A stretch of DNA of 64,000 nucleotides from an uncultured Lachnospiraceae bacterium (GTDB taxonomy: Bacteria > Bacillota > Clostridia > Lachnospirales > Lachnospiraceae): positions 1,268 to 65,267 of the forward strand of contig CAKRJP010000007.1 of assembly GCA_934351835.1 (NCBI GenBank). Direction: 5' to 3'. The translations under genes were made by a program, and so were the position numbers. Positions 9,549 to 58,577 of this stretch are shown here, piece after piece (the stretch's first letter is position 1; the number at the start of each line of letters is the position of its first letter). The notes beneath the pieces were generated by a model, which was not told the origin of the DNA, made no database searches, and saw only the letters and a list, made by a program, of their open reading frames with translations.

Positions 9549-9593
9549 CAATCTTGCGTTGTGAGAGACACAACTTTTAGTTTAATAAGATGT

Positions 9594-9666
9594 GCGCGAT
9601 TAGCTCAGCTGGCAGAGCACCTGACTCTTAATCAGGGTGTCCAGGGTTCGAACCCCTGATCGCGCA
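9594..9666 (+). tRNA. tRNA-Lys (anticodon CUU)
   Basis: 73 nt fold by hand into a cloverleaf. The acceptor stem is GCGCGAT/ATCGCGC and the D arm is GCTC-AGCTGGCA-GAGC. The anticodon stem is CCTGA/TCAGG with loop CTCTTAA. The T arm is CAGGG-TTCGAAC-CCCTG. Confidence 0.9.
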
Positions 9667-9671
9667 GTATT

Positions 9672-43539: not shown

Positions 43540-44454
43540 GTGAGCAGCCGAAGTTTGGTGATCTGCGATAAGGAGGAAGGATATGCCACAGCACTTGCGA
43601 CATATTTAACACAACAGAAGGAAATTGCATTTCAGGTGCAGGTTTGTAATGATCCGGCACAGTTGGTTGAGATGCAGAGGCTACAGAAGATAGACATTTT
43701 ATTGATCAGCGAGATATACAGCAGAGATAAAAAGAAAGAGATTACAGCCGGAAAGATATTGATATTGACTGAGCGGTGTGTAAGGACATCGCAACAATCA
43801 AAGAAAGTATTGTATAAATATCAGTCGGGAGATACACTGCTTGCACAGATCATAAGTTATTGCAATGCAGAAGGAAAAGGACATTTGCTTGCGCAGAGGA
43901 AGAGGATTTCTACCAGAAAGATTATAGGGATTTTCTCACCGGTTCACAGATGTGGCAAGACGAGTTATGCATTACGGATCGGGAAAGAGATGGCTATATC
44001 AGACAGAGTATTGTATCTGGGGATGGAACATTATGGTGGAAAAGAAGGATATTTCCCGGAAGGCGTTCAGACAATTTCAGATGCTTTATATTATGCAAGG
44101 CAGGAAGGCGAGAACCTGGGGATGATGCTTCCGGGGATGGTGGATCATATGGATGGTCTGGACTATCTTTCACCGGCGAAAGTATCTGAGGATATCAGGG
44201 AAACTACAGCAGAGGACTGGAAAGTTTTTATCGAAAAGATTCTGGGATCAAGTCCGTATAATATAATACTTTTGGACATAGGCGAAGGAATCCGCGGAGT
44301 ATATGAGATTCTGAGGATGTGTACAGAGATTCATGTACTGACGTTAAACGATAAAGTGTCGGCCGGTAAGATTTTTCAGTTTGAGGAAGAACTACATTTG
44401 CTCGGATATGATGATATAAGAAGAAAGATCATAAAGAAGGAGCAGGCGCTATGA
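43540..44454 (+). CDS. CpaE/TadZ-like (receiver-like N-terminus plus degenerate MinD/ParA P-loop) pilus assembly protein
   Basis: GTG start. The segment IIGIFSPVHRCGKTSYALRIG is a deviant P-loop. The gene is the first of the Tad operon. Confidence 0.6.
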   Translation: MSSRSLVICDKEEGYATALATYLTQQKEIAFQVQVCNDPAQLVEMQRLQKIDILLISEIYSRDKKKEITAGKILILTERCVRTSQQSKKVLYKYQSGDTLLAQIISYCNAEGKGHLLAQRKRISTRKIIGIFSPVHRCGKTSYALRIGKEMAISDRVLYLGMEHYGGKEGYFPEGVQTISDALYYARQEGENLGMMLPGMVDHMDGLDYLSPAKVSEDIRETTAEDWKVFIEKILGSSPYNIILLDIGEGIRGVYEILRMCTEIHVLTLNDKVSAGKIFQFEEELHLLGYDDIRRKIIKKEQAL

Positions 44455-45683
44455 TTTCGGTGGAGACACTCCATGCAAGAGTGTTAAGAGAGCTGGATAT
44501 GACGAAAGATACTTCGGATGAAGAACTGACGAGATTGATCTACCGGATATTGAAAGAAGCATCGGAAGAAGAATATCTGTCATTGGAACAGCGGACTGCA
44601 TTGGGGAGAGAATTGTTTAATGCATTTCGAAAACTTGATCTGTTGCAGGAGTTTTTAGAAGATGATGATGTCACGGAGATTATGATCAATGGGACGCAGG
44701 CGATTTTCTACGAAAAGGGAGGACGTATCTATCAGTCGGATAAGAGATTTTTATCAAAAGATAAACTGGAAGATGTGATCCAGCAGATTGTTGCAGGATC
44801 AAACCGGTTGGTGAATGAGGCTTCACCTATTGTAGATGCAAGGCTTTCAGACGGTTCACGGGTGAACATAGTATTAGCTCCGATTGCACTTGACGGGCCA
44901 ATTGTAACAATCAGAAAATTTTCCAGAGAAGGCATCACTATGCAGAATCTAATTGCATGGAATTCTATAGATCAGAAAACCGCAACATATCTTACCACTC
45001 TGGTGGCAGCGGGATACAATATATTTATCAGTGGTGGAACCGGGTCCGGTAAGACCACATTCTTAAATGCACTATCAGAATACATTCCAAAGTACGAAAG
45101 AATAATTACAATTGAAGATAATGCTGAATTACAGATTCGTGGCGTTGCCAATCTGGTCCGCCTGGAATCCAGAAATGCGAACGTGGAAGGAACAGGAGAG
45201 ATATCTATCAGAGATCTGATTAAAGCAGCACTCAGGATGCGGCCGGACCGGATTATTGTGGGAGAAGTGCGGTCTGCGGAGGCTATCGATATGTTACAGG
45301 CACTTAATACAGGGCATGACGGAAGTTTAAGTACAGGACATGCCAATAGTCCGGGAGACATGCTTTCCAGGTTAGAGACAATGGTATTGATGGGGATGGA
45401 TCTGCCGCTTGCGGCAATTCAGAGACAGATTGCATCGGGGATAGATGTTATCGTCCATTTAGGCAGGTTGCGTGATAAGAGCAGAAAAGTTCTGGAAATT
45501 GTGGAAGTCCTGGGCTATGCAGAGGGTGAAATTCAGTTGCAGACATTGATTCAATATCAGGAGAAGGGAGAACAGAAAGGAAAAATTACAGGGGAATGGA
45601 GGAATATGCATGAACTTGTGCATAGACAAAAGCTGGAGGCAGCAGGATATCAAAAAGGGAGAATGGATACAGATCATTATTAA
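44451..45683 (+). CDS. cpaF: CpaF/TadA family secretion ATPase
   Basis: Walker A is ISGGTGSGKTT. Other blocks are ITIEDNAEL, RPDRIIVGEVR and NTGHDGSLSTGHAN. Confidence 0.9.
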   Translation: MISVETLHARVLRELDMTKDTSDEELTRLIYRILKEASEEEYLSLEQRTALGRELFNAFRKLDLLQEFLEDDDVTEIMINGTQAIFYEKGGRIYQSDKRFLSKDKLEDVIQQIVAGSNRLVNEASPIVDARLSDGSRVNIVLAPIALDGPIVTIRKFSREGITMQNLIAWNSIDQKTATYLTTLVAAGYNIFISGGTGSGKTTFLNALSEYIPKYERIITIEDNAELQIRGVANLVRLESRNANVEGTGEISIRDLIKAALRMRPDRIIVGEVRSAEAIDMLQALNTGHDGSLSTGHANSPGDMLSRLETMVLMGMDLPLAAIQRQIASGIDVIVHLGRLRDKSRKVLEIVEVLGYAEGEIQLQTLIQYQEKGEQKGKITGEWRNMHELVHRQKLEAAGYQKGRMDTDHY

Positions 45684-46365
45684 ATCCTCAGGAATTTACA
45701 TAATCACGGCATGGCTTTATTACCGCTCTTTTTGGGCATTGATCCCGCTTTTTCCAGTATGGGCGTGGCAGCTTAAGATGATGGCAGAAGAAAAGCGTCA
45801 AGGAAAAGTTCTGGAATTTCAGACTCAGTTTAAGGAGGCTGTGCAGGCGATTTCTTCAGCGTTGAATATCGGATATTCTGTAGAGAATGCAGTGTGTGAG
45901 GCGCAGAAAGAATTGCTGTTGATCTATCCGGAGCAGGCAAGGATATCGAAAGAGTTGCAGCTCATGGTCCGGCAGATGCGTTTTCAGATGCCGGTGGAGC
46001 AGGTATTTACAGAATTTGCGGACCGCATGGAGATAGAAGATGTAAGCAATTTTGCAGATGTGTTTATTTCGGCAAAACGAAGTGGTGGAAATATGGTGTC
46101 AATTATTCAGAATACGGTAAAGCAGATCAGTGACAAGATAGATGTTCGACGGGAGATTGAGACGATACTGGCTGCAAAAAAGTATGAATTTAAAATAATG
46201 GCGATAATACCATATGCCATTATCGGATACATGACATTTAGTTTTCCGGAATTTATGGACAATCTATATGGAAACTTACTGGGGATTGGAGTGATGACAC
46301 TGTGTCTGATAAGTTATTTAGCAGCATATTATATGGGGTTAAAAATAATAACGATAGACATATAA
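45610..46365 (+). CDS. tadB: Type II secretion system F family protein (TadB-like)
   Basis: 251 aa with a T2SSF-type helical domain followed by C-terminal TM helices. The start is uncertain, because the only ATG overlaps cpaF by 74 nt. Confidence 0.65.
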   Translation: MNLCIDKSWRQQDIKKGEWIQIIIKSSGIYIITAWLYYRSFWALIPLFPVWAWQLKMMAEEKRQGKVLEFQTQFKEAVQAISSALNIGYSVENAVCEAQKELLLIYPEQARISKELQLMVRQMRFQMPVEQVFTEFADRMEIEDVSNFADVFISAKRSGGNMVSIIQNTVKQISDKIDVRREIETILAAKKYEFKIMAIIPYAIIGYMTFSFPEFMDNLYGNLLGIGVMTLCLISYLAAYYMGLKIITIDI

Positions 46366-47573
46366 AAGTAGCTTTGGTAGTTGCAATCTTAGTATTTGGA
46401 GTTGGATTAATCCTATATGACTGGAGAGTATCGATGACAGAGCTGGATGAGAACAGATACCGGAACAGTTATGGAAAAGGCAGTAAAACAGAGCAGTTTG
46501 AAGTCCTTCCGGAAGGGGATGACCAGAAAATCCCGATGGAGATAGAAGTGTCCGAGCAGCAGTATACGGAGAAAGAAGCAAAGAAGATGTTTGACCGCTT
46601 GGTCCGGCGGCTGGATAAACTGATTCTTGGGGAGAATAAAACCCTGGATCATGTGGATAAAAATCTGAATTTATTAACAAATGTGGAAAACGAGCCGGTG
46701 ACGATCAGATGGGAACTGGATGATTATCAATGGATGAATGTCCGAGGAGAATTGACTGAAAATGAGAAACCGGCGGATGGGGCAATTGTAAATCTCAGGG
46801 CAATTCTGACATATACGGAGAACGAGACAATACAGACTGTATATGAAAGAGCGGTCTGTATCTATCCGGAGAAAAAATCTAAGAACCAAAAGAAGAAAGA
46901 TTCGATAAAACAAATGGTGACAGAGGCTGAGTCGGAGAACAAAACGAATATTATATGGAAACTTCCAAAGACATTTAACGGGAGGGAAATACATTATTAT
47001 ACAGCGTTCAACCAACGGGGGATTGTTGTGATAGTAATGGCGGTTTTGATAGCGGTGTTGTTGATCCTGCAGCAGAAACAGAATCAAAAAGAGTATGCAA
47101 ATGAGCGGAGAGAGCAGATGATGCTGGATTATCCGGAGATTATTAATAAGCTGACGTTGTTTCTGGGGGCCGGGATGACTGTAAAGAGGGCCTGGAAAAA
47201 GATTGTTCAGGACTATGAACTGCAAAAGGAAGAACGGGGACAGCGATATGCTTATGAAGAGATGAAGCTAACCGTCAGAGAAATAGAAAGCGGTGTTCCG
47301 GAGACAGAAAGCTACGAGAATTTTGGAAAGAGATGTGAAGTACAGGCGTATATGAAACTTGGGGCACTGCTCTCACAAAATCTGAGAAAAGGCGTCAGAG
47401 GATTGGGAGAAATATTACGTTGGGAATCTGTTCAGGCATTTGAAGAAAGAAAAGCAAGAGCAAAAAGAAAAGGTGAAGAAGCGGGAACAAAATTATTATT
47501 ACCAATGTTCCTTATGCTGACAATAGTTTTGGTGGTCGTGATTGTACCGGCGTTTTTATCTGTACAGATTTAA
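46302..47573 (+). CDS. tadC: TadC-like type II secretion system F family protein with an extra N-terminal domain
   Basis: 423 aa. One N-terminal TM helix is followed by a domain of about 200 aa. The T2SSF-like region (LTLFLGAGMTVKRAWKKIV) and terminal TM helices come last. The start is uncertain. Confidence 0.6.
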   Translation: MSDKLFSSILYGVKNNNDRHIKVALVVAILVFGVGLILYDWRVSMTELDENRYRNSYGKGSKTEQFEVLPEGDDQKIPMEIEVSEQQYTEKEAKKMFDRLVRRLDKLILGENKTLDHVDKNLNLLTNVENEPVTIRWELDDYQWMNVRGELTENEKPADGAIVNLRAILTYTENETIQTVYERAVCIYPEKKSKNQKKKDSIKQMVTEAESENKTNIIWKLPKTFNGREIHYYTAFNQRGIVVIVMAVLIAVLLILQQKQNQKEYANERREQMMLDYPEIINKLTLFLGAGMTVKRAWKKIVQDYELQKEERGQRYAYEEMKLTVREIESGVPETESYENFGKRCEVQAYMKLGALLSQNLRKGVRGLGEILRWESVQAFEERKARAKRKGEEAGTKLLLPMFLMLTIVLVVVIVPAFLSVQI

Positions 47574-47597: not shown

Positions 47598-47726
47598 ATG
47601 TGGAGAATTTATTATATCAGACAGATTTTACGAGAAAAAAGTGGAGTTGGGGTAGTGGAAGTTATATTGATTCTGGTCGGAATATTAACCACCTATTATG
47701 AGGTGATTATAAGGTGTATAGGGTAA
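47598..47726 (+). CDS. Flp1-like pilin ORF, possibly 3'-truncated (below the ORF-track cutoff)
   Basis: My translation is MWRIYYIRQILREKSGVGVVEVILILVGILTTYYEVIIRCIG, with RBS agaggag. G-VVEVILILV matches the Flp prepilin cleavage and hydrophobic core motif. The tail after ILILV does not look pilin-like. Confidence 0.45.
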   Translation: MWRIYYIRQILREKSGVGVVEVILILVGILTTYYEVIIRCIG

Positions 47727-47777
47727 AAATGTGTGGACAAATAGAACTGGATATACAGTGAGAGGTGGAAAGTGTGT

Positions 47778-48083
47778 ATGAGGTCAAAGGGAAAAATAAC
47801 AAAAGAAATTGTATTGATTAGATACTACAATGTATTATTTTATTTGTTTTTTGAGATAGGGATAGACGATTTTAAGAAACAATGTTTAGTAAGCTGGGTG
47901 GCGTCAGCAGAAGGTATGAGAATGAAACAGATAAAGGAATGGTGCTATTTCCAGCATATTTCATTTAAGACTAAATTTATTTATAGAAAAGATTTCCCAT
48001 TTAGAGCTAATTTATGGAATTTATATTCATATGTAAGATTTAAGATTGGTTTAATGCATAGAAAAATATTTTGTTTGTTTTAA
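47778..48083 (+). CDS. Hypothetical protein (weak call)
   Basis: 101 aa from ATG 47778 after gaggtgg. The composition is aromatic-rich and no family is recognised. It could be non-coding. Confidence 0.3.
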   Translation: MRSKGKITKEIVLIRYYNVLFYLFFEIGIDDFKKQCLVSWVASAEGMRMKQIKEWCYFQHISFKTKFIYRKDFPFRANLWNLYSYVRFKIGLMHRKIFCLF

Positions 48084-48280
48084 ACTAAAAGACATTGAAA
48101 AACCACTTTTTTTATAAGATAATGATAACATGATTTATTAAGGATTAAAATTTTGGAGCATCTTCAATTAAAGTGAAAGATTCAGAGAAATCTTGTATTA
48201 TGTACTAAGTGGATATAATGTTAAAAGAAGTTGTGTGTGCAATTATTAATATAGAGTGAAGAGAGATAGGAGCTGATTTT

Positions 48281-50419
48281 GTGAATAGTAATTTGACAAT
48301 TCTTGGTGCGTTTGAATCGGGAATTAAAACCGATGTTGCAGAGCAATTTGTTCAGAAATTTTTGGAAAAATATGAGAATGTTGAAGGTGAGTTATATTTA
48401 GGATATCCAATATATATTGATGAGGTAGCGAATAGAAGAATATGTGTGGATATGGCATTAGTGTCTAAAATTGGAGTTTATATCATCAATATTTTAACAG
48501 AGCCTGTAGTGAAATATGGGGAAATTCAAGATGATATTTATGCTAAAGTAGAAACTAAATTTAAAAAGCAGAACTTTTTATTTAAAAAGAGAAAACTCAT
48601 TTTTGATTTTTATACTTTAACGTATTCTGTAACACCGATTAAAGAAGAAGAAGATTACCCATTAGCTCAAAAAGTCGATGATATAATGGATTTTATTGAG
48701 CAGACAAGAGAAGAACAAGAATATGGGGATGATTTATACAGAAAAATTTTGTCGGGACTTCAGGAAGCATATGGTATCAACACCTATAAAGAAAGAGAAA
48801 ATGTAGAAGAAGGAACCAAAGCCTATGCAATTAATCAGATGGCATCGTTAATCGAAAAATATGATAGTGCACAAATGGAAGCTATTTTATCGGATGCTAC
48901 GGGAATTCAACGTATTAGAGGGATGGCAGGTAGTGGAAAAACAATTATTTTGGCAAGAAAAGCGGTAGAATTGCATACAGCACATCCAGAATGGAATATA
49001 GTTGTCACGTATTCAACTCGATCTCTTAGAGGACAATTGGAAGCTCTAATAGCAAGGTTTTATGCCGCTAAAAATGAAGGCGCTAAATATAATCCAGAAA
49101 AACTGAAAATTATGCAGTCGTGGGGCTCAGCGACTTCTAAAGGAGTGTATTATGAAGTATGTTTGCGTCATGGCATTGCACCGTTGAATTTTTCAGAAGC
49201 CAGAGCAAAATATGGGAGAAGTGTCAATCACTTTTCGAGGTTATGCGGAGAATTATTATCATCAATTAAAAATTTCCAAAAAATGTATGATTGTATTTTG
49301 ATAGATGAAGCACAGGATTTTGATAAAAATTATTTACAATTGTGTTTGAAAATATTGGATAAGAATCAGCGGTTAGTATATGCATATGATGAGTTGCAAA
49401 AGTTGAATGAAGAGGCAATGCCAAATCCAGAGCAAATATTTGGGAAAAATATTGATCATGATACGCCATTGGTTGTTTGTTATAGAAACCAAGGAAATGC
49501 AATAGTAACTGCACATGCTATTGGCATGGGGTTATATCGAAAAGAAGGGTTGTTGCAATTACCGAGTTCTTCATCTGTGTGGGAAGCAATTGGATATGTT
49601 AGTGATACGCCTATTACAGAGGGACAAGAAGTAACTTTGTATCGGACAAAAGAAACAAGTCCAGAGTTACTAAAAACCAATCCTAATGAGGTTATTCAAT
49701 TTTTGGGATATGAAGATTATAAAAAAATGTATAAATCTCTTTTAGATATGTTGAAATCAGATTTGGAGAAGGAACAATTGATTCCAAGAGATATCATGAT
49801 TATTGATATGGATACGTTTGAATATGGTAAAAACTGTATGCGATTATCTAATATCCAGTCAGAATATAATTCAGTTGCTTGGGATGATGAATTTAATTAT
49901 GATGAGGATAAAGAAATATATAAATTTAAAATTCATACAGCAGGAGCAGCAAATCCAGAAGATTTTTTCAGAGAAGATTCGGTCGTGTACTCTAGTGTAA
50001 GAAGAGCAAAAGGTAATGAAACATATATGGTATATATTGTAAATGCTCAAAAATGTGTTAATTCTTTGCAGAGAAGGTCAGATAGAAATGCGCTGTTTAC
50101 TGCAGTTACACGCTCTAAGGGATGGGTGAAAGTTTTGGGATATGGAGAAGATATGATGGTCTTGCAAGAGGAATTTGAAGAAATAAAGAGACAAGATTTT
50201 AAACTCCATTTTGATAAATACCCAACTAAAGAAGAACAAAAGCAAATTTTCTTGAATAACAAAGATGTAGCGGCGAAAGACATACAGACTATCGATAAAA
50301 CAAAAAATTTAATTGGAAAGCTTACAGGAAATGGAAACGTTACAAAAATCCAATTAATGCAAGAGTTATTTGGAATGAGTAAAGAGGAATTGGCTAAACT
50401 CCTTGAAGGAGGCGAATAA
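48281..50419 (+). CDS. SF1 (UvrD/AAA_19-type) helicase with a NERD-like N-terminal region
   Basis: 712 aa with a GTG start after aggag. Walker A is GMAGSGKT and Walker B is ILIDEAQDF. The late motifs are VRRAKGNETYMVYIV and LFTAVTRSKGWVKVLG. The N-terminal CVDMALVSKIGVYIINIL resembles the NERD core strand pair. Confidence 0.8.
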   Translation: MNSNLTILGAFESGIKTDVAEQFVQKFLEKYENVEGELYLGYPIYIDEVANRRICVDMALVSKIGVYIINILTEPVVKYGEIQDDIYAKVETKFKKQNFLFKKRKLIFDFYTLTYSVTPIKEEEDYPLAQKVDDIMDFIEQTREEQEYGDDLYRKILSGLQEAYGINTYKERENVEEGTKAYAINQMASLIEKYDSAQMEAILSDATGIQRIRGMAGSGKTIILARKAVELHTAHPEWNIVVTYSTRSLRGQLEALIARFYAAKNEGAKYNPEKLKIMQSWGSATSKGVYYEVCLRHGIAPLNFSEARAKYGRSVNHFSRLCGELLSSIKNFQKMYDCILIDEAQDFDKNYLQLCLKILDKNQRLVYAYDELQKLNEEAMPNPEQIFGKNIDHDTPLVVCYRNQGNAIVTAHAIGMGLYRKEGLLQLPSSSSVWEAIGYVSDTPITEGQEVTLYRTKETSPELLKTNPNEVIQFLGYEDYKKMYKSLLDMLKSDLEKEQLIPRDIMIIDMDTFEYGKNCMRLSNIQSEYNSVAWDDEFNYDEDKEIYKFKIHTAGAANPEDFFREDSVVYSSVRRAKGNETYMVYIVNAQKCVNSLQRRSDRNALFTAVTRSKGWVKVLGYGEDMMVLQEEFEEIKRQDFKLHFDKYPTKEEQKQIFLNNKDVAAKDIQTIDKTKNLIGKLTGNGNVTKIQLMQELFGMSKEELAKLLEGGE

Positions 50420-50420
50420 T

Positions 50421-51077
50421 ATGCCTGCATCTAAGATGGTAAAGCATATCTTAGATGATATGAGAAAAACAAATGAAGAATTATGGAAAAAGGGAATTGT
50501 GCGTGATGAAAAAGGCGCATCTGTAAAGCAAACAGGAAATGATTCTTGGGAAATATCTTTTTCGGGGAAAAATGATAGTGGAAGCATTATATTGGATAAG
50601 CACATAACAGCAACAAGAATTATAGATGTATTACTTGAAAACCTACAGTATACATTGCTACTATATGATAAAGGTATAATTCAAGCAGAATATGAGATTT
50701 CAAATGATAAAATTGTAAAAGAACGATTAGTTTTTATGAAGAAGCATAATAAAATTTGGGACTTCAAAGAAATTGAAGCATGTGAAGCAGAAGATAAAGA
50801 TTGGTTTATGGAGGAAGAAGGAGTCCCGATTATGCTTAGAATTGATTATGCTCCAGATGATCATATTGAAGGCGAACATGCAGCCACTCATTTAACATTA
50901 TCCAATCATGAATGCTGTAGAATTCCAATTAAAGGAATTGTGACGTTCTCCGAATTTGTTAGGTTTGTTTTATTACATTTTTATGATATAAAACTGGATA
51001 AAGCGGTTTTCCGTTTTGATGAAGAAGATACGATTACTGGTTTGGAAAAACAAATGATGCATATAAATTGGATTTGA
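50421..51077 (+). CDS. Unrecognised 218-aa protein coupled to the helicase
   Basis: ATG 50421 follows gaaggagg by 8 nt and begins 1 nt after the helicase stop. The His/Cys-rich block DDHIEGEHAATHLTLSNHECCRIP is notable. No family recognised by eye. Confidence 0.7.
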   Translation: MPASKMVKHILDDMRKTNEELWKKGIVRDEKGASVKQTGNDSWEISFSGKNDSGSIILDKHITATRIIDVLLENLQYTLLLYDKGIIQAEYEISNDKIVKERLVFMKKHNKIWDFKEIEACEAEDKDWFMEEEGVPIMLRIDYAPDDHIEGEHAATHLTLSNHECCRIPIKGIVTFSEFVRFVLLHFYDIKLDKAVFRFDEEDTITGLEKQMMHINWI

Positions 51078-51374
51078 TTATGGCTCTTGTGATAGGAATT
51101 ACATAGCGATTAAAACAAAGAGATATTTCTGTATGATGAGATATCTTTTTTATAAAAGATTTCGGAAATTTAGATGGAGGATTTAGGGGTTGGTAAACGC
51201 CAAACCATTCGTCTCGTAATCTGCGTAAATGCTAGTTTTTCCTATATTTTCAAGTAGTTTTCAACTTTTATTGAGTTGCACTTATTTCTGGAAATTTATA
51301 CTAATCTGCTGGTTTCAAATTTTGCATAATTTGTAAATGAAAATTTTAATGGTATCTGGTATCAATGCTAGACT

Positions 51375-52094
51375 TTACTTACGCTTATGCGAGATATTTA
51401 TCTTTTTATTTTTTAGTATAGATAATATAAATGAAAAAATGAATAAGAATATTACTTCTCCCGTTGCTATTCCATAAATAATTTGATTTACAATATCATT
51501 GTATGATGAAAAGCAAAGAAAGAGCAAAATGACAAAAACAAAGCTACTTTCTAAAATCATTTTGACATCTTTTGATGTCTTTTTAACACTATCGATATAT
51601 TCCGTTAGTAATACTATAAGAGATTTATTTTTTAAAAAAGTTTCTACAGAAATATACGAACCAATCAAAACACTTATAGCAATACTGGAAACAGTTAGGT
51701 ATTCACTTGAACCACATTGTATAGATATGATTCCTCCCGATATTGCAACACAAATATAAGATAAAATTATCGCCCAATGCTTATCGCTCACTTTTAATTC
51801 GTTTTTGGGACATATCTTTTCAAAAAATATATTAACTGTCCAAATACTAAACAACAAGTATAATGCACTGAATATGGAACTAAGTTCACTACATACATCA
51901 TTTAATATCAAAGAAATAAAGATATATGCAAATGAAGACATAAACATAAAAAAACAATATAGTATTTTTTGTGTCGGTGCTTTGATACAATTAATCAGTC
52001 TATAGACTATTTTTACCTTTTGAAAAACGCAATAGGTAAATAAAAACATTATAAATATTGTTATTATCAGTGATATGAAATAATATTTATTCAT
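51375..52094 (-). CDS. Polytopic membrane protein, unknown family
   Basis: 239 aa from ATG 52094 (MNKYYF, RBS ggagtg). There are about 6 hydrophobic helices and no sizeable soluble domain. The gene is very AT-rich. Confidence 0.65.
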   Translation of the reverse strand: MNKYYFISLIITIFIMFLFTYCVFQKVKIVYRLINCIKAPTQKILYCFFMFMSSFAYIFISLILNDVCSELSSIFSALYLLFSIWTVNIFFEKICPKNELKVSDKHWAIILSYICVAISGGIISIQCGSSEYLTVSSIAISVLIGSYISVETFLKNKSLIVLLTEYIDSVKKTSKDVKMILESSFVFVILLFLCFSSYNDIVNQIIYGIATGEVIFLFIFSFILSILKNKKINISHKRK

Positions 52095-52423
52095 ATATCT
52101 ACACTCCATTCGCTATAAATACTATCTGAATACGGTAACAACTATAAAGTAAGTTTTTAAATGATCAATATGGATAAGTATATCATTTTCGATTTACAAC
52201 TACCATAAAAATCCTTATAAATAGCTTATTTTTTTCGGTGTTCTCTGCAACGTATAGCTTTGTGAATTGTCTGCGTTTTGGTTGCTTTTATTCTTCAACA
52301 CAACATCTTCTTGCCTTTACACACCATTCACCATCTGCATCCATATAGAGTTGTTTCTAATAGTTTTTTAGAATATCTCAGAAATGTGCAGATTAGGTCT
52401 AGGCGAGTGGTTTGTCGTTTATA

Positions 52424-52452
52424 TTGTTTGGGAGCTTAAAACATAGTATAAT
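52424..52452 (+). promoter_or_regulatory. sigma-A promoter (TTGTTT-17-TATAAT)
   Basis: ttgttt at 52424-52429 and tataat at 52447-52452, about 35 nt upstream of ATG 52487. Confidence 0.55.
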
Positions 52453-52486
52453 TTTTAGAAATATTTTAGAAAGGAGAGAAATTTAT

Positions 52487-53218
52487 ATGGAACACAAATT
52501 TAGAAAAGTAGTGGTAATATTTATTGATATATTAGGTTCTCAAAGTAGGAGTAACTTTGAAGAATGGTATAATATTATGAGCATTTTTAATAAAATGGTG
52601 GAACGAGAAAAAGCCTTAGACGAAACTCATACAAGGGTTATTTATAAGAGAGAAATTCATGTTTTTTCTGATTGCGCATATATCATTTATGATTATAAAG
52701 ATGGCATTGAAGAGAGTCGAAAAAATATGTATGAGTTAATGGGAATTGCTTGTTATAACACTGAAAAAGTATTGTATGAATTTTTGAAAAATGAATTTAT
52801 TGCTCGTGGTGCAATTACATATGGTGAGATGTTTTATGATACTGAAAAGAATATTTGGTTTGGACCGGCAATGAATCGGGCTTATTTTTTGGAATCTAAG
52901 AAAGCAAGTGTGCCAAGAGTAATTATAGATCCGGAATATGCGGAAGAATTGTATGCATTTAACGAAAAAAAATATCGAGGAGATAGTATATTAAAGATGG
53001 ATAATGGTGAAATTCTTCTTCGTGATATAGATGGGAGCATATATTTGAACTATTTAAATACTGTGAAGCAAGGAATAAATCGGGTGGAAAGCGAATGGGT
53101 TATAGAAAAAGCACTTGAATTGTGTAACAGGGAAAGAGCTATAAAGAGAGATTCAGAAGAACTACAGCAATCTATTCAGAAAAAGTATGATTGGTTAGAA
53201 AGATATTTATTACAATAA
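52487..53218 (+). CDS. Class III nucleotidyl-cyclase-like (palm domain) protein with an uncharacterised C-terminal extension
   Basis: 243 aa with RBS aaaggagag. Four ordered motifs are present: VVVIFIDILGSQS, HVFSDCAYIIY, ARGAITYGEMFY and WFGPAMNRAYFLES. They parallel the FxDIxGF(T/S), GD, RxGIHxG and GxxVNxAxRLES motifs of class III cyclases. Confidence 0.7.
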   Translation: MEHKFRKVVVIFIDILGSQSRSNFEEWYNIMSIFNKMVEREKALDETHTRVIYKREIHVFSDCAYIIYDYKDGIEESRKNMYELMGIACYNTEKVLYEFLKNEFIARGAITYGEMFYDTEKNIWFGPAMNRAYFLESKKASVPRVIIDPEYAEELYAFNEKKYRGDSILKMDNGEILLRDIDGSIYLNYLNTVKQGINRVESEWVIEKALELCNRERAIKRDSEELQQSIQKKYDWLERYLLQ

Positions 53219-53244
53219 ATAAGAAAGAGAAAGAATCACAAAGG

Positions 53245-53273
53245 CAGACTTCGATTAAGAGGTCTGTTTTTTT
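53245..53273 (+). terminator. Rho-independent terminator
   Basis: Arms cagacttc and gaggtctg form an 8-bp stem including one G-U pair, followed by T7. Confidence 0.6.
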
Positions 53274-53298
53274 CTGGTCTTTTGGGAGGTGATAAGAG

Positions 53299-53631
53299 GT
53301 GGAAGTAAGTATTTATGAACTCTTGGCGGCAGCAAGAGAATCGGCTAAATCCGATTATATAAAGGGGGACAGCATTTTGTGTGAGAAGAGATTTCATCCA
53401 GATATCCATTACATGGTGGAAATGGAGCTGTTAGAAAATGATAACCGGCTGGGAGAAAAGGAAAATTATATACGGAAGTTTCTGACAGAACCGGAGTATT
53501 TTCCCATTTTACAAAAGCAGGAAAAACATCTCATAAAAATAAAAAGACAGGCAATTGTTCAAAAAGGAAACTTGCGATATATCCCTCCTCCGGACAGGCT
53601 GGACAGCCGCCGGGAGAGGGATATTTTATAA
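53299..53631 (+). CDS. Hypothetical protein
   Basis: 110 aa with a GTG start. No family recognised. Confidence 0.35.
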   Translation: MEVSIYELLAAARESAKSDYIKGDSILCEKRFHPDIHYMVEMELLENDNRLGEKENYIRKFLTEPEYFPILQKQEKHLIKIKRQAIVQKGNLRYIPPPDRLDSRRERDIL

Positions 53632-53808
53632 CCGGCTGGGAAGAAATAGTAGTGTTCCTCTGGCGATAGTGGTATAAAAAAGCCAGATTTTCCGCAGGTT
53701 TTGGGACGCTGGAACATAGAAAAGTGTTCACGAATGACACTTTTGCAACAATCCGTTGCAGCAGTGAAAACATTTTTGGATTTACGTTAAACAGAAAAAT
53801 GAAAGGAT

Positions 53809-54726
53809 GTGATTGCGATAATCATAGGAATTGATCATGGCTATTATGCCATTAAAACAAGACAAGTGTCTTTCCCAAGTGGAATTATTGGGTATGATTA
53901 CGAGCCGTATACCATGCAGAATGTTCTGCAGTATCAGGGAAAGTATTATGTCTGTGGTACAGGGAGACAGACACTGGTAAAAAATAAAACGTCCAATGAT
54001 AATTATTATCTGCTGACGTTGGCAGCCATTGCGGAAGAAATCAAGCATCGGAAAGCGGAACGAAAGACAGAGGTAATTCTGGCTGTCGGACTTCCGCTTT
54101 CAAGTTTTGGAAGAGAGAAACATGGATTCAGGGAGTATCTGTTGCGGAAAGAGCAGCCAGTGCGATTTTTATATGAAAGTGAATTATATGAGATAACAAT
54201 AAAAGATGTGAAACTGTTCCCACAGGGATACTCTGCGCTTGCTTTGCATCCAGAGTACCTGAAGAATGAACCATCTGTTCTGCTTGTTGATATTGGTGGC
54301 TGGACCGTTGACCTTATGAGGCTGGACAATGCTGTTCCGAATGCAGCAACGTGCAGGAGTCTGGAACTGGGTGTGATCCGGTGTATTGACGAGACGGCAG
54401 AACAGGTGCGGAGAAATACCGGACTGTCTGTAACGGAAACACAGATCGAACGTGTGCTTCGTGGGGAAACCTGCAGCATGGCAGAAGATGCAAGAGTTGT
54501 CATACAGGAAAACGGACGGAAATACATCGAAAGAATCCTGTCTGCGGTAACGGAATCCGGGTTTGATCTCAGGGCAGTGCCGAGCGTATTTATGGGTGGA
54601 GGTTCTGCGATTTTAAAACGCCACGTGACCGCACAGGATGCGATTTGCCGCCCTGTTTTTATCGAGGACGTCCATGCGAACGCTGCCGGGTATGAACGGA
54701 TTGTAGAGCAGATGTGGGCGAAATGA
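53809..54726 (+). CDS. parM: ParM/StbA family actin-like segregation ATPase
   Basis: The phosphate-1 motif is IIGIDHGYYAIKT and the phosphate-2 motif is LLVDIGGWTVDL. The adenosine motif is FMGGGSA. Confidence 0.8.
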   Translation: MIAIIIGIDHGYYAIKTRQVSFPSGIIGYDYEPYTMQNVLQYQGKYYVCGTGRQTLVKNKTSNDNYYLLTLAAIAEEIKHRKAERKTEVILAVGLPLSSFGREKHGFREYLLRKEQPVRFLYESELYEITIKDVKLFPQGYSALALHPEYLKNEPSVLLVDIGGWTVDLMRLDNAVPNAATCRSLELGVIRCIDETAEQVRRNTGLSVTETQIERVLRGETCSMAEDARVVIQENGRKYIERILSAVTESGFDLRAVPSVFMGGGSAILKRHVTAQDAICRPVFIEDVHANAAGYERIVEQMWAK

Positions 54727-55013
54727 CACGTCCGGTATATTCGTTCCGTCCAAACCTGAAAAATCCGGAACACCAGAAAGCATGGGAGAAATTCCAGAGT
54801 GTTCCGGAAGGACAGAAAAACCAGTACCTTGTTCAGGCGATTCTGGAAAAAGAGGACCGGAAGTGGATGGAAGAGGTCATCCAAAAGACGATCAAAGAAA
54901 GTGTTCGGGAATTAAACATTTGTGGCGGTGCGGAACAAAGTGGAACAAATCCACTGGCTGAGGATATCCCGGATCAGATGATGGATTTCCTATCTCAGAT
55001 GGAAAATATGTAA
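54723..55013 (+). CDS. Small protein downstream of parM (possible ParR-like adaptor)
   Basis: The ATG overlaps the parM stop (ATGA). The N-terminal segment YSFRPNLKNPEHQKAWEKFQ...YLVQAIL is ribbon-helix-helix-like. Confidence 0.45.
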   Translation: MTRPVYSFRPNLKNPEHQKAWEKFQSVPEGQKNQYLVQAILEKEDRKWMEEVIQKTIKESVRELNICGGAEQSGTNPLAEDIPDQMMDFLSQMENM

Positions 55014-55167
55014 AGGGGGTGAGGCCTATGATTGTGCGATACATACATTGTTGGATCTGCTAGGGGCAGGAGCAAAACAGCATCGATATCTTTGGTAGGT
55101 ATCGTGAATAGCTTTCCATGCATCTTTGGAGTATGTTGTGTGTAGCGAAACGGAAAGGAGAAACGCT

Positions 55168-55686
55168 ATGACAGAGATGAAGAACATATGCGGAAAGATC
55201 CCGAAGGACTTACACGAAAAAGTAAGAGAAGAGATTGAACTGACAGAAAGCAGCACACAGAAATTTATACAGCAGGTCATCGAAGAACATTTTGAAAGAC
55301 TTGCAGGAAAAGGAGAAATGAGCATGGGAACAGCAAGAACAATCGCAGTACAGGTATCAGAGGAATTATTCCAGAGATTAAAAACAGTCATCGCAAAAAA
55401 AGGCATGAAACAGAAAGACTTCTTAATTCAGATCATCGAAGAGGCACTGGAAAAGGCAGAGACCGAATGGCAGAACAAAGACAGCATGGAAGAAACGGAA
55501 CCTGTAACCGGAGAATCTGGAACAGAAGAGACTCAACCGGACGAGGAAACCGAACCGGAAGGAGAAAACGAACCGAGCGAGGAAAGCGAACCGGACGAGG
55601 AAGCCGAACTGAAAGAAGAAAGTGAACCGGACGAGGAAACTCAACCGGAAGAAGAAACCAAAGCAGAAGAACCAACAGAATGGTAA
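55168..55686 (+). CDS. Tandem RHH-like protein with a poly-acidic repeat tail
   Basis: ATG 55168 follows aaaggaga. There are two RHH-like units (IPKDLHEKVREEIE...FIQQVIEEH and VSEELFQRLKTVIA...FLIQIIEEA). About 65 aa of (S/T)EP(D/E)EE repeats follow. Confidence 0.55.
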   Translation: MTEMKNICGKIPKDLHEKVREEIELTESSTQKFIQQVIEEHFERLAGKGEMSMGTARTIAVQVSEELFQRLKTVIAKKGMKQKDFLIQIIEEALEKAETEWQNKDSMEETEPVTGESGTEETQPDEETEPEGENEPSEESEPDEEAELKEESEPDEETQPEEETKAEEPTEW

Positions 55687-57053
55687 CAAACAGACACAGA
55701 GAAACCAACAGGCGGTATGAGAAAAATCATGCCGCCTGTTTTTATCAGCAAAGGAGGTTGATAACCGCAACCATTCAATTTTTTGATCTCTTTAGCGGAA
55801 TCGGCGGATTCCGTGAAGGCTTAAGACGTGCAGGGGGATTTACCTGTGTCGGACACTGCGAGGTGGATACTTATGCGGATAAGAACTACCGATTGCTGTT
55901 TGACACAGAAGGGGAGTGGTATTGTAGTGATGCACGAACAATTGAACCAGAACGAATGCCGGATTTTGATCTGCTCTGTGCAGGATTTCCTTGCCAGGCA
56001 TTCTCTATCGCCGGAAAGCGAGAAGGATTTGCAGATGCAAGAGGAACCCTCTTTTTCGAGATTGCCCGGCTTCTTAAAGCTAAAAGACCCCAGTATTTTA
56101 TCCTTGAAAATGTTCCCGGCCTGCTTTCGCATGACAAGGGGCGGACATTTTGCACCATCCTCAGTACGCTTTCGCAACTGGGGTACCATGTCGAATGGAA
56201 AGTGCTTAACAGCAAGGATTTCGGAGTCCCCCAAGCAAGGAAACGGGTGTATATTGTCGGATATCTTGATTTCAGATGTGCCGGAAAAATATTACCTGAA
56301 CCAGAAACAAATGGAGCAGCTCTTATTCAAATCCGGGCAGGAAGTCAGGGGAAAAGAGTCTACAGTCCCAAAGGACTAAGCTGTACCCTGACATCACAGG
56401 CAGGTGGAATGGGCGGCAAGACAGGATTATATGATGTGGGTGTTCCAATTAAAGAAAATACAAAGCTCGGCTACAAACTTGCAAGAGAGGGTGACAGCAT
56501 CGATTTAGGCTATGCGAATCTCAACAGCAGGAGAGGAAGAGTCGGACATCAGATAGCACACACTCTGACTACAGGTATTCAACAGGGAACACTTCATTTC
56601 GTAGATTTGTCTCCACCACCACTGGTAACTGAAGAATGCAGAAGCCTTAATACCCGACAATGCGGAATCCACAAATACAAAGGAGAATGTTCCGGTGTAT
56701 TAAGAGAAGAAGGGGCAAGAGCAGTCCTTACACCAGCCAAAGAAAATGTCCGTCAGAACGGCAGACGTATGAAAGAACCAGAAGAACCGATGTTTACAAT
56801 TACTGCAACCGATCGTCATGGCATCTTGTATCACGGCAGAATAAGAAGGTTAGTTCCGAGGGAATGTCTGCGTCTGCAGGGTTATTACGACTGGCAGATT
56901 GATAAGATCATAGACAGCACTTCTGACGCACAGCTTTATAAACAGGCTGGAAACGGAGTAACTGTCAATGTTATCGAGGCAATTGGCAGATTGTTACAAA
57001 AGGCAGACTCCGAACTCAACACACAGGAAGTGTCTGAGAAAGGAATCTATTAG
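55680..57053 (+). CDS. dcm: DNA (cytosine-5)-methyltransferase
   Basis: Motif I is FDLFSGIGGF, motif IV is GFPCQAFS, motif VI is ENV and motif VIII is QARKRVYIVG. A long variable region follows, then motif X QAGNGV. The true start is uncertain because the tracked ATG lies about 30 codons before motif I. Confidence 0.9.
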   Translation: MVTNRHRETNRRYEKNHAACFYQQRRLITATIQFFDLFSGIGGFREGLRRAGGFTCVGHCEVDTYADKNYRLLFDTEGEWYCSDARTIEPERMPDFDLLCAGFPCQAFSIAGKREGFADARGTLFFEIARLLKAKRPQYFILENVPGLLSHDKGRTFCTILSTLSQLGYHVEWKVLNSKDFGVPQARKRVYIVGYLDFRCAGKILPEPETNGAALIQIRAGSQGKRVYSPKGLSCTLTSQAGGMGGKTGLYDVGVPIKENTKLGYKLAREGDSIDLGYANLNSRRGRVGHQIAHTLTTGIQQGTLHFVDLSPPPLVTEECRSLNTRQCGIHKYKGECSGVLREEGARAVLTPAKENVRQNGRRMKEPEEPMFTITATDRHGILYHGRIRRLVPRECLRLQGYYDWQIDKIIDSTSDAQLYKQAGNGVTVNVIEAIGRLLQKADSELNTQEVSEKGIY

Positions 57054-57055
57054 GC

Positions 57056-58012
57056 ATGATCGGTATAAAAGACCAATACTTTGGCACAGAAATCGAAATG
57101 ACAGGGATTACCAGACAACGTGCTGCAGAAGTTGTTGCTGAAATGTTTGGAACAGAAGCATATTATGACGGCACTACTTATGGAGTCTGGTCAGTGATAG
57201 ATCTGGAAGGAAAAAAGTGGAAATTTATGTCTGATGGGAGCATTTATACACAACGAAAAGTATACGGTCGAATTGTAGACGCAGGTGGAGAATATTCAAC
57301 AGAAATGGTATCTCCGAAATTATCCTATGATGAAATGGGTAAGTTACAGGAAGTAGTACGCTGTCTGCGACAGCATGGCGGTTTTGTAAATGAGTCCTGT
57401 GGTCAGCATGTTCATGTAGATGCATCGAATCATACACCGCAGAGTCTGAAAAATGCACTGACAATTATGTATGCAAAGGAAGATATCCTGTTCAAAGCAC
57501 TGAAAGTGCAGGAGAGAAGAGCAAATAGTTATTGTCAGAGGGTGCGACCGGAGGTATTAGAGAAAATCCGAAAAATACCAAATAGATCAATCACTATGGA
57601 TCGAGTAAGAAATGTCTGGTATGGAGGTAGGGATGGAAGTCATACCCATTATGATCATACCCGTTATTATGCTCTGAATCTTCATGCTGTGTTTTCCAAA
57701 GGAACTTTGGAATGGCGCTGTTTTGAAAGCACACTTCATGCAGGAAAGGTAAGAGCAAATATTACTCTGGCATTAGCCATTTCCGCACAGGCGATCAATC
57801 AGAGATCGACACAGATGAAAAAGACACTGATATCAGAAAACCCGGCATTTACATTTCGTACATTTTTATTGAGACTTGGGTTAATTGGAGACGAATATAA
57901 AAATGTCCGAAAACATCTGCTGGCAAATCTGGATGGTGATCTTGCGTGGCGATATGATAAAAGCACGTATGAGTGTCTGAAGAAAAATCAAAGGACGGAA
58001 GAAGTCAGATAG
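57056..58012 (+). CDS. Amidoligase family protein (Amidoligase_2-like, GS-fold)
   Basis: 318 aa with FGTEIEMTGI, STEMVSPKL, CGQHVHVD and LEWRCFESTLH. These match my recollection of the putative amidoligase family found on conjugative elements. Confidence 0.7.
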   Translation: MIGIKDQYFGTEIEMTGITRQRAAEVVAEMFGTEAYYDGTTYGVWSVIDLEGKKWKFMSDGSIYTQRKVYGRIVDAGGEYSTEMVSPKLSYDEMGKLQEVVRCLRQHGGFVNESCGQHVHVDASNHTPQSLKNALTIMYAKEDILFKALKVQERRANSYCQRVRPEVLEKIRKIPNRSITMDRVRNVWYGGRDGSHTHYDHTRYYALNLHAVFSKGTLEWRCFESTLHAGKVRANITLALAISAQAINQRSTQMKKTLISENPAFTFRTFLLRLGLIGDEYKNVRKHLLANLDGDLAWRYDKSTYECLKKNQRTEEVR

Positions 58013-58022
58013 AGGTGAAAAA

Positions 58023-58505
58023 ATGGAAGAAAGATATTATTTTGCTTATGGCAGCAACATGAATCTGGAGCAGATGAAGTACAGGTGTCCGGCTGCGGAA
58101 GTTGTGGAAAATGTCCGGCTTGAAAATTATCGGCTGGCATTTCGAGGAAGGGCTCCGGGCAATGGAGTAGCAACGGTGCTTCCGGAAAAAGGAAGCTGTG
58201 TGGATGGAGTCTTATGGAAAATCACAGAAGCTTGTGAAAAGAATCTGGATTTTTATGAAGGATTTCCGAATTTTTATGGGAAAGAAACCATTCAGGTAAA
58301 GGATCAGGCTGGAACTGCAAGGGAAGTATTCGTATACACGATGAACTCTCCTCATAAGGATGTTCCGGCAAGACCATCGAAATTTTATCTGGATGGAATT
58401 CTGGAAGGATGTCTGGAAAACGGTTTACCGACAAAGTCGGTGATGGATGCAGTAAAACGCACCAGAAAGGAAATGAAAAAAGCAGAAAAGCAATATACAA
58501 GATAA
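58023..58505 (+). CDS. Gamma-glutamylcyclotransferase (AIG2/GGACT-like)
   Basis: The N-terminus is YYFAYGSNMNLEQMKYRCP, with an E in the downstream YEGFP block. Confidence 0.8.
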   Translation: MEERYYFAYGSNMNLEQMKYRCPAAEVVENVRLENYRLAFRGRAPGNGVATVLPEKGSCVDGVLWKITEACEKNLDFYEGFPNFYGKETIQVKDQAGTAREVFVYTMNSPHKDVPARPSKFYLDGILEGCLENGLPTKSVMDAVKRTRKEMKKAEKQYTR

Positions 58506-58577
58506 ATGTTACCGCAGAGGGAGAGCCTTCTGCGGTATTTTACTGAACAATATATTTATTATAGGAAGGGAACATAC

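Follow-up and report, generated by a model that had tools for sequence, protein, structure and literature searches.

Two adjacent genes at positions 48281 to 51077 of the DNA shown above, one for a superfamily 1 (SF1) helicase and one for a small partner protein, raise the question of whether they form a new helicase-plus-effector defence system, as an earlier reading of the sequence alone had implied, or belong to a system that already has a name. The DNA, hereafter the window, is a stretch of 64,000 nucleotides (nt) of contig CAKRJP010000007.1 from an uncultured Lachnospiraceae bacterium (GCA_934351835.1); all coordinates refer to the whole window, and residue numbers refer to the window proteins. 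The pair is very probably a standard member of the named two-gene defence system Helicase + DUF2290, known as Rst_HelicaseDUF2290 in DefenseFinder and Helicase-DUF2290 in PADLOC, carried as low-GC (guanine plus cytosine) cargo on an element resembling an integrative and conjugative element (ICE) of a Dorea-like gut Lachnospiraceae. The two genes are as follows:

48281..50419, + strand: SF1 helicase gene of the Helicase + DUF2290 type, PA1372-type, 712 amino acids (aa), GTG start
50421..51077, + strand: DUF2290 partner gene, PA1371-type, 218 aa, ATG start

Profile searches assigned both proteins to this system. The partner matched Pfam DUF2290 (PF10053) at 85.8 bits, where the cut-off is 25 (E 3.4e-24, profile positions 7-204 of 204) and the PADLOC DUF2290 models PDLC02998/02999 at E about 1e-27 (9e-28), and members of the window-protein cluster carry the NCBI name ‘DUF2290 domain-containing protein [Dorea]’. 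The sequence-only reading could not assign the partner to a family, and it had suggested testing the protein as DUF2290-like; the suggestion was apt, and the protein had in fact already been so named in Dorea. The helicase matched the PADLOC model PDLC03002 ‘Helicase’ at E 1.5e-170 and 566.9 bits, with residues 18-696 aligned on profile positions 12-696 of 707, and other PADLOC helicase matches, namely a ‘NERD+UvrD’ candidate limited to the core and short GajB segments, were far weaker. Compared with the STM2767 family (NCBIfam NF053713), the helicase scored 122 bits where the equivalog cut-off is 550, and by this score it is related to that family but is not an equivalog. The remaining hallmarks of membership were likewise found: the genes are adjacent and co-oriented with the helicase first, and Walker A, Walker B, and motifs III-VI are intact.

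The system itself has been described and tested by Rousset et al. (2022), who found that Helicase + DUF2290 from a P4-like satellite of Klebsiella pneumoniae (SB5961) specifically inhibits phage T7 and that the system is also present in Vibrio and Bacillus prophage hotspots (PMC9122126), and DefenseFinder tracks it under the name given above (PMC12278908). In Pseudomonas aeruginosa PAO1, PA1372 (helicase) and PA1371 (partner) have been recognised as Helicase + DUF2290 (PMC11637435; MPAO1 annotation, bioRxiv 2026.09.16.752016). The two-gene defence logic proposed from the sequence thus holds in the form of a PADLOC match to a named anti-phage system, and the implied novelty does not; assignment to a named system by profile search was the outcome that the earlier reading had itself set against its proposal.

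To assess whether the two genes travel together, a genome collection was scanned with a DUF2290 alignment, yielding 16 loci, of which two, a 1.5-kb contig and a gene remnant, were set aside. Wherever the DUF2290 gene was complete (14 of 14 loci), the gene directly before it on that strand encoded a full-length homologue of the helicase, and the same arrangement was present on three of three plasmids (E. coli IncI, Acinetobacter, and Nostoc; gaps of 0-5 nt) and in four of four IMG/VR loci, one of which keeps only the helicase C-terminus. Thus, the co-occurrence that the earlier reading had wanted measured was complete, the helicase-then-DUF2290 order being found in 21 of 21 loci from Bacillota, Proteobacteria, Cyanobacteria, and viral contigs, and in addition on an E. 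coli chromosome. Identities of the helicase and DUF2290 proteins to the window pair drop together, through 97/97, about 75/62, about 49/40, and about 34/27% (r = 0.975, n = 20), and the pair was therefore inherited as a unit. One protein from the search of representatives (P0256, 487 aa) carries helicase motifs I-II in its N-terminal part and the C-terminal two-thirds of DUF2290 at residues 344-486; it represents a gene-fusing deletion or an assembly artefact and is consistent, as weak evidence, with a joint function of both proteins. The neighbouring genes (103 aa, a 244-aa membrane protein, and 243/268 aa) were considered as a third component and rejected, because they are conserved only in a near-identical element of Dorea hominis and are missing from most other pair-bearing loci; n103 recurs in two relatives with the ICE backbone, L002 and L003.

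Both genes are real. The exact DUF2290 protein was found on at least 1000 public contigs, and full-length homologues of the helicase and of the DUF2290 protein number in the hundreds each. The helicase TAA at 50417-50419 is followed by a single T and then by the DUF2290 ATG at 50421, and this 1-nt gap, together with a GGAGG inside the helicase coding end, bears out the translational coupling that had been read from the junction. Two observations support GTG as the start of the helicase: an AGGAG lies 8 nt before it, and homologues share the resulting length and N-terminus. The signals around the pair are:

48095..48123, + strand: sigma-70-like promoter candidate TTGAAA-17-GATAAT, ~160 nt upstream of the helicase start, 10 of 12 matches in a consensus scan
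48268..48272, + strand: ribosome-binding site AGGAG for the helicase gene, 8 nt before the GTG, read from the sequence
50408..50412, + strand: ribosome-binding site GGAGG for the DUF2290 gene, inside the helicase coding end, read from the sequence
51117..51150, + strand: terminator-like A/U-rich hairpin with a U-tract, 40 nt past the DUF2290 stop

The promoter candidate is weak evidence, as such sites are no commoner in the region than shuffle expectation. The RNA fold of 51078-51160 has an energy of -20.3 kcal/mol (z = -3.9 against shuffles); the hairpin within it, which has few G-C pairs in its stem and was not called by the consensus scanner, is the probable operon end. With the coupled junction and the 3′ hairpin, the helicase and DUF2290 genes therefore look like a self-contained operon.

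The helicase is predicted to be an active enzyme, since all SF1 motifs are invariant in an alignment of nine sequences from Bacillota, Proteobacteria, and Cyanobacteria. Each of the peptides quoted for it in the earlier reading was located at its stated place, including GMAGSGKT (residues 214-221), ILIDEAQDF (339-347), VRRAKGNETYMVYIV (573-587), and FTAVTRSKGWVKVLG (606-620), so the description of an SF1 helicase with intact motifs stands. The protein extends for about 190-213 aa ahead of Walker A and for 92 aa beyond motif VI, and the ~190-aa N-terminal domain and ~90-aa C-terminal tail are common to all phyla in the nine-sequence alignment; the extra regions pointed out earlier do exist, but they are features of the family, not peculiarities of this locus. 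The protein divides into three parts:

48281..48850, + strand: N-terminal domain, aa 1-190, alpha/beta, with G36, GYP41-43, D57, G65, and QD83-84 conserved across phyla
48851..50140, + strand: SF1 ATPase/helicase core, aa 191-620, with motifs I-VI (Walker A GMAGSGKT, II ILIDEAQDF, III-like YAYDELQ, IV-like CYRNQ, V RAKGNE, VI FTAVTRSKG)
50141..50416, + strand: C-terminal helical tail, aa 621-712, with an F..L.F..YP block kept in nine of nine diverse homologues, helical in the model

Above cut-offs, Pfam gave UvrD_C_2 and SLFN-g3_helicase (24.5 bits, just over threshold) for the helicase, and comparison with solved structures by sequence gave nothing significant. The AlphaFold2 (AF2) model of the helicase is of moderate quality (predicted local distance difference test, pLDDT, 70; predicted template modelling score, pTM, 0.49), and its best fold matches are human SLFN11/SLFN14 (E 3e-11), followed by RecD, Dna2, Upf1, and GajB. 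On the modelled fold, the protein is an SF1 helicase of the Schlafen/DUF2075-like kind, as in Nhi; given the moderate model, the domain arrangement and the long alignments to SLFN11 and Dna2 are therefore read no further than this. The C-terminal tail has no Pfam match and is a candidate docking surface for DUF2290.

The N-terminal domain had been likened to a NERD nuclease-related domain, and profiles lent this no support: NERD (PF08378) gave no Pfam match at E<=1 with the full protein or at E<=10 with five diverse N-terminal domains, and the PADLOC ‘NERD+UvrD’ model aligned to core residues 191-616 only. A profile search of the PDB with the N-terminal alignment returned only noise. In the AF2 model the predicted topology is beta-alpha-beta5-alpha-beta, and D57, which lies in the stretch CVDMALVSKIGVYIINIL (residues 55-72), is invariant, but the (D/E)xK position reads N/D/I/H-x-L/I/V, with no Lys, in nine of nine homologues. 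The modelled topology and the invariant D57 and Q83-D84 would be compatible with a degenerate PD-(D/E)xK-like domain, at best a decayed nuclease-like one.

The DUF2290 family is large, with 740 clusters (representatives at 50% identity) recovered at E<=1e-3 in an exhaustive profile search, almost all of them stand-alone proteins of ~220 aa. Residue conservation was counted in 131 representatives, whose identity to the window protein is 19-53% (median 25%), and amounts to 98% for D83, 85% for Q88, 90% for R102, 100% for R140, 98% for D142, 100% for H153, 85% for P154, 100% for H157, 97% for C166, 100% for R167, 92% for I168, 96% for P169, 87% for E209, and 80% for H214. The most conserved part is a signature block:

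50838..50927, + strand: family signature block, aa 140-169, R140-x-D142 ... H153-P154-x-x-H157 ... C166-R167-I168-P169

All signature residues except P154 and P169 are invariant in the cross-phylum alignment. By alignment, the His/Cys block singled out earlier as possibly metal-binding (DDHIEGEHAATHLTLSNHECCRIP, residues 146-169) is this family signature; only C166 of its two Cys residues is conserved, and H148 and H163 are clade-specific.

The AF2 model of DUF2290 is confident (pLDDT 87.5, pTM 0.87), and it places the conserved polar residues on neighbouring strands of the C-terminal sheet, which suggests that they form one functional surface. A Foldseek search of the PDB with this model gave a best E of 0.096 with template modelling (TM) scores <= 0.2, a search of BFVD gave a best E of 0.022 with the top TM scores, 0.38/0.49, to the uncharacterised Gp492 of Bacillus phage G, and a profile search for solved relatives found none; the modelled fold is thus apparently new. 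An E2/UBC-like fold, prompted by the ‘HP...C’ motif and weak Foldseek matches to UbcH5, was rejected at TM 0.12-0.16 and probability <=0.07, with an hhalign probability of 0.3%. Compared by eye, the conserved residues did not fit the patterns of HEPN (Rx4-6H), JAMM, HUH, or classic PD-(D/E)xK proteins. In the model, the beta156-159 / beta167-169 / alpha176-188 segments follow a beta-beta-alpha plan, conceivably that of a divergent His-Me-finger-like centre.

Measured against characterised systems, the window pair shares with Helicase + DUF2290 both protein families, the gene order, the tight coupling, sizes of roughly 710 + 220 aa, the helicase extensions, and a mobile carrier, whereas its identity to the proteobacterial and cyanobacterial members aligned with it is 33-36% for the helicase and 24-31% for DUF2290, its host is a gut Lachnospiraceae, and its carrier is ICE-like instead of a P4 satellite. 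With Nhi it shares an SF1 helicase with Schlafen group 3/DUF2075-like features and an alpha/beta domain N-terminal to the core, and the window helicase probably works on replication intermediates too; however, Nhi consists of one protein whose nuclease domain is active, the N-terminal domain here lacks (D/E)xK and a separate DUF2290 protein is obligatory, and no PADLOC Nhi model matched the pair at E<=1. Gabija also consists of an SF1 helicase and a partner encoded by two genes, and GajB is among the helicase fold matches (8sm3_B, E 3e-5), but the partner here is DUF2290 and not an ATPase-TOPRIM OLD nuclease, and the helicase gene comes first; PADLOC gave no GajA match, and GajB matched ~46 residues (330-375, around motif II) at E 1.3e-5. 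Hachiman combines a helicase sensor with a small effector of formerly unknown function and offers an analogy for a helicase-gated effector (PMC12278908), but HamB is an SF2 helicase and HamA a PD-(D/E)xK DUF1837 protein, whereas the window helicase is SF1, and neither a HamA/HamB PADLOC match nor a DUF1837 Pfam match was obtained. The earlier remark that HamA, OLD, and Vsr signatures are not visible agrees with the PADLOC scan, in which no such partners were found.

How the system acts can be proposed tentatively, with the helicase as a sensor of foreign replication intermediates and DUF2290 as the catalytic effector. The helicase and DUF2290 would be produced at a constant ratio and assemble into a complex; the SF1 helicase, with its degenerate nuclease-like N-terminus, would load on foreign, fast, or Rep-driven replication structures (ends, forks, or gaps of single-stranded DNA, ssDNA), and ATP-driven translocation would then deliver or activate DUF2290. 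In the new-fold partner, Arg140/Asp142/His153/His157/Cys166/Arg167 would come together on the C-terminal beta-sheet in a catalytic centre that depends on a metal or a thiol and most likely acts on nucleic acid, and phage or episomal replication would be stalled or damaged as the outcome. The stronger statement, that DUF2290 is an unrecognised enzyme fold with this six-residue centre acting on nucleic acid and switched on by a helicase whose nuclease-like N-terminus has decayed, is conceivable and for now doubtful. In PAO1, once PA1372 has lost its function, the small plasmid pNUK73 no longer carries a fitness cost, its rep gene is no longer over-expressed, and the SOS response disappears; PA1372/PA1371 lie in a low-GC island and always occur together in other species (PMC4410645); deletion of the system in MPAO1 had a phage-specific effect (bioRxiv 2026.09.16.752016). 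Several points weigh against the assignment and the mechanism proposed with it. A homologue from Lactococcus failed to protect against the phages that were tried (PMC11381338), reviews list the mechanism as ‘N/A’ (PMC11232893, PMC10952713), and the link to the validated proteins of K. pneumoniae SB5961 and PAO1 (PA1372/PA1371) runs through the PADLOC models and the annotation in those papers. No nuclease or hydrolase was matched by DUF2290 in fold or profile searches, its proposed catalytic role being drawn from conservation alone, and the reported PAO1 compensatory mutations lie in the helicase and not in PA1371 (PMC4410645), so that the helicase alone could be the toxic activity.

In the main rival explanation, which is rather unlikely and still to be taken seriously, the system is the same and DUF2290 is a non-catalytic, metal-binding adaptor or sensor, with His/His/Cys holding a structural zinc, that recognises a phage or plasmid protein such as a replication initiator and gates the helicase; the helicase itself would do the damage by stripping proteins and unwinding or stalling replisomes, giving rise to ssDNA and SOS. 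A typical structural zinc site can likewise consist of His/His/Cys and an acidic residue. Also in favour of this reading are the missing similarity of DUF2290 to nuclease and hydrolase folds and the finding that helicase loss of function alone ends the plasmid cost, rep over-expression, and SOS response in PAO1 (PMC4410645). However, two invariant Arg and two Asp on neighbouring strands look more like a substrate-binding or catalytic surface than a zinc knuckle, and the characterised two-gene helicase systems, Hachiman and Gabija, use a catalytic effector (PMC12278908, PMC10952713). The PAO1 mutations, all in the helicase, fit a catalytic effector and an adaptor alike. That the pair instead serves the mobile element itself, as an accessory helicase for replication, conjugation, or stability, is highly improbable: the pair is always on mobile elements, sits at the edge of an ICE-like element both here and in E. 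coli, adjoins toxin-antitoxin and stability genes on plasmids, and affects plasmid rep expression in PAO1, but its carriers (satellites, prophages, ICE-like elements, and small plasmids) are unrelated and have unrelated replication and transfer machinery, it occupies variable cargo slots that are at times beside defence genes (bSEFIR, methyltransferase), and a cloned homologue protects E. coli from T7 (PMC9122126). The reading from which the question arose, a system distinct from every named one, could appeal to the lack of a solved-structure relative by sequence for either protein and to helicase extensions without a Pfam assignment; it retains next to no probability and is already refuted by the profile matches, since both proteins match existing PADLOC Helicase-DUF2290 models, the helicase over its whole length, the partner exceeds the Pfam DUF2290 gathering threshold, and the N- and C-terminal extensions are common to proteobacterial and cyanobacterial members.

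The pair lies within a segment that differs in composition from its surroundings:

47674..53700, unstranded: low-GC cargo segment with the pair, 31.6% GC against 41.7% in the rest of the window
43540..47573 and 53299..62948: ICE-like backbone, flanking the cargo

The cargo segment is situated between Tad-like secretion genes and a backbone with ParM-like, C5-methylase, and adhesin genes. Upstream of the pair are genes for a CpaF-like T2SSE ATPase, two T2SSF (TadB/C-like) proteins, and a 103-aa open reading frame (ORF); downstream follow an opposite-strand multi-pass membrane protein, a 243-aa hypothetical protein, DUF5720, a ParM-like actin (ALP_N), and a C5 DNA methylase, and further downstream Amidoligase_2, a GGACT protein, and a 1480-aa adhesin with a thioester domain and SpaA repeats. 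Judging by these genes, the backbone probably belongs to a Bacillota ICE-like element; the window contains neither a relaxase nor a type IV secretion system. The sole transfer RNA gene of the window, tRNA-Lys (CTT) at 9593..9667 (+), lies at a great distance from the cargo and does not suggest itself as an attachment site for it.

In Dorea hominis NSJ-36 (L001), 93% identity extends across window positions 47674-57044, past the cargo segment. This homology begins abruptly at 47674, about 100 bp after the TadC-like gene, and in D. hominis the segment is preceded by a 502-aa tyrosine recombinase and not by Tad-like genes; position 47674 is a recombination or insertion boundary. No convincing att-like direct repeats were found flanking the cargo segment. 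Two other relatives keep the cpaF-tadB-tadC-103aa order but differ in where the pair stands relative to the ParM-like gene, so that its cargo slot is a variable one. Relatives carry different genes in the slot between the 103-aa ORF and the ParM-like gene, and this slot may be a defence or cargo hotspot. In an uncultured Lachnospiraceae, the gene next after a Helicase + DUF2290 pair (L008, 6836..8191) encodes a bSEFIR-like defence protein (PADLOC E 1.3e-60), and in L003 the pair is followed by a type II methyltransferase, so the pair sits in small defence islands in some relatives. On the E. coli TC_EC10 chromosome (L027, 8984..11812), the pair lies at the far edge of an integrated element with genes for an integrase, AlpA, RepA, TrbJ/TrbL, toxin-antitoxin proteins, and a recombinase, just before IS200 and the chromosomal yfgI, a position that mirrors the edge-of-element position in the window.

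Several other genes near the pair were characterised as follows:

51375..52109, - strand: 244-aa multi-pass membrane protein, no family, weak PADLOC ‘CARF_TM’ match (E 0.004)
52412..53218, + strand: hypothetical gene, real start probably ATG 52487 (243 aa)
55126..55686, + strand: ORF for a 186-aa protein, with six tandem 18-nt units at 55535..55678

The membrane protein gene is divergent from the hypothetical gene and is conserved only in the near-identical Dorea hominis element. The 243-aa hypothetical protein is frequent in gut metagenomes, its exact sequence occurring on at least 671 contigs; by eye it has class III nucleotide cyclase-like motifs (VVVIFIDILGSQ, HVFSDCAYII, and ARGAITYGE), and sequence searches of Pfam and the PDB gave no match to it. 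A Pycsar-like reading of the cyclase-motif gene and the membrane protein was rejected, as weak PADLOC PycC matches appeared in only three of 35 family members (best E 5e-4) and, in prophages, distant homologues stand alone with no membrane partner beside them. These homologues, in Fusobacterium and C. perfringens prophages, are accessory genes between the replication and packaging modules, and the 243-aa protein may be an uncharacterised single-gene, phage-encoded function. The 18-nt units, reported by the repeat finder as overlapping 54-nt copies with 18-nt spacing, encode an acidic Glu/Pro-rich repeat in the 186-aa protein, which has weak ribbon-helix-helix (CopG/ParG-like) matches and may be a partition adaptor because its gene is downstream of the ParM-like gene.

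The named system to which the pair belongs as an ordinary member has experimental support, and the claimed novelty is refuted; as a finding, the locus is of little import, given that PADLOC and DefenseFinder would label it automatically. Among human-gut Lachnospiraceae, the system occurs abundantly on mobile elements. Its mechanism is unpublished in the literature searched, and the remaining interest, in the mechanism and the apparently new fold, is family-wide and not specific to this locus. The conserved residue set and the confident DUF2290 model without a fold match offer concrete targets for mutagenesis, and the Lachnospiraceae clade, with its many close homologues, would be a good source of protein for structural work. 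If DUF2290 is indeed a new enzyme fold, Helicase + DUF2290 would represent a mechanistically new class of replication-sensing defence, and the PAO1 plasmid-cost data suggest that it acts on episomal replication besides phages, which bears on the traffic of plasmids and ICEs in the gut.

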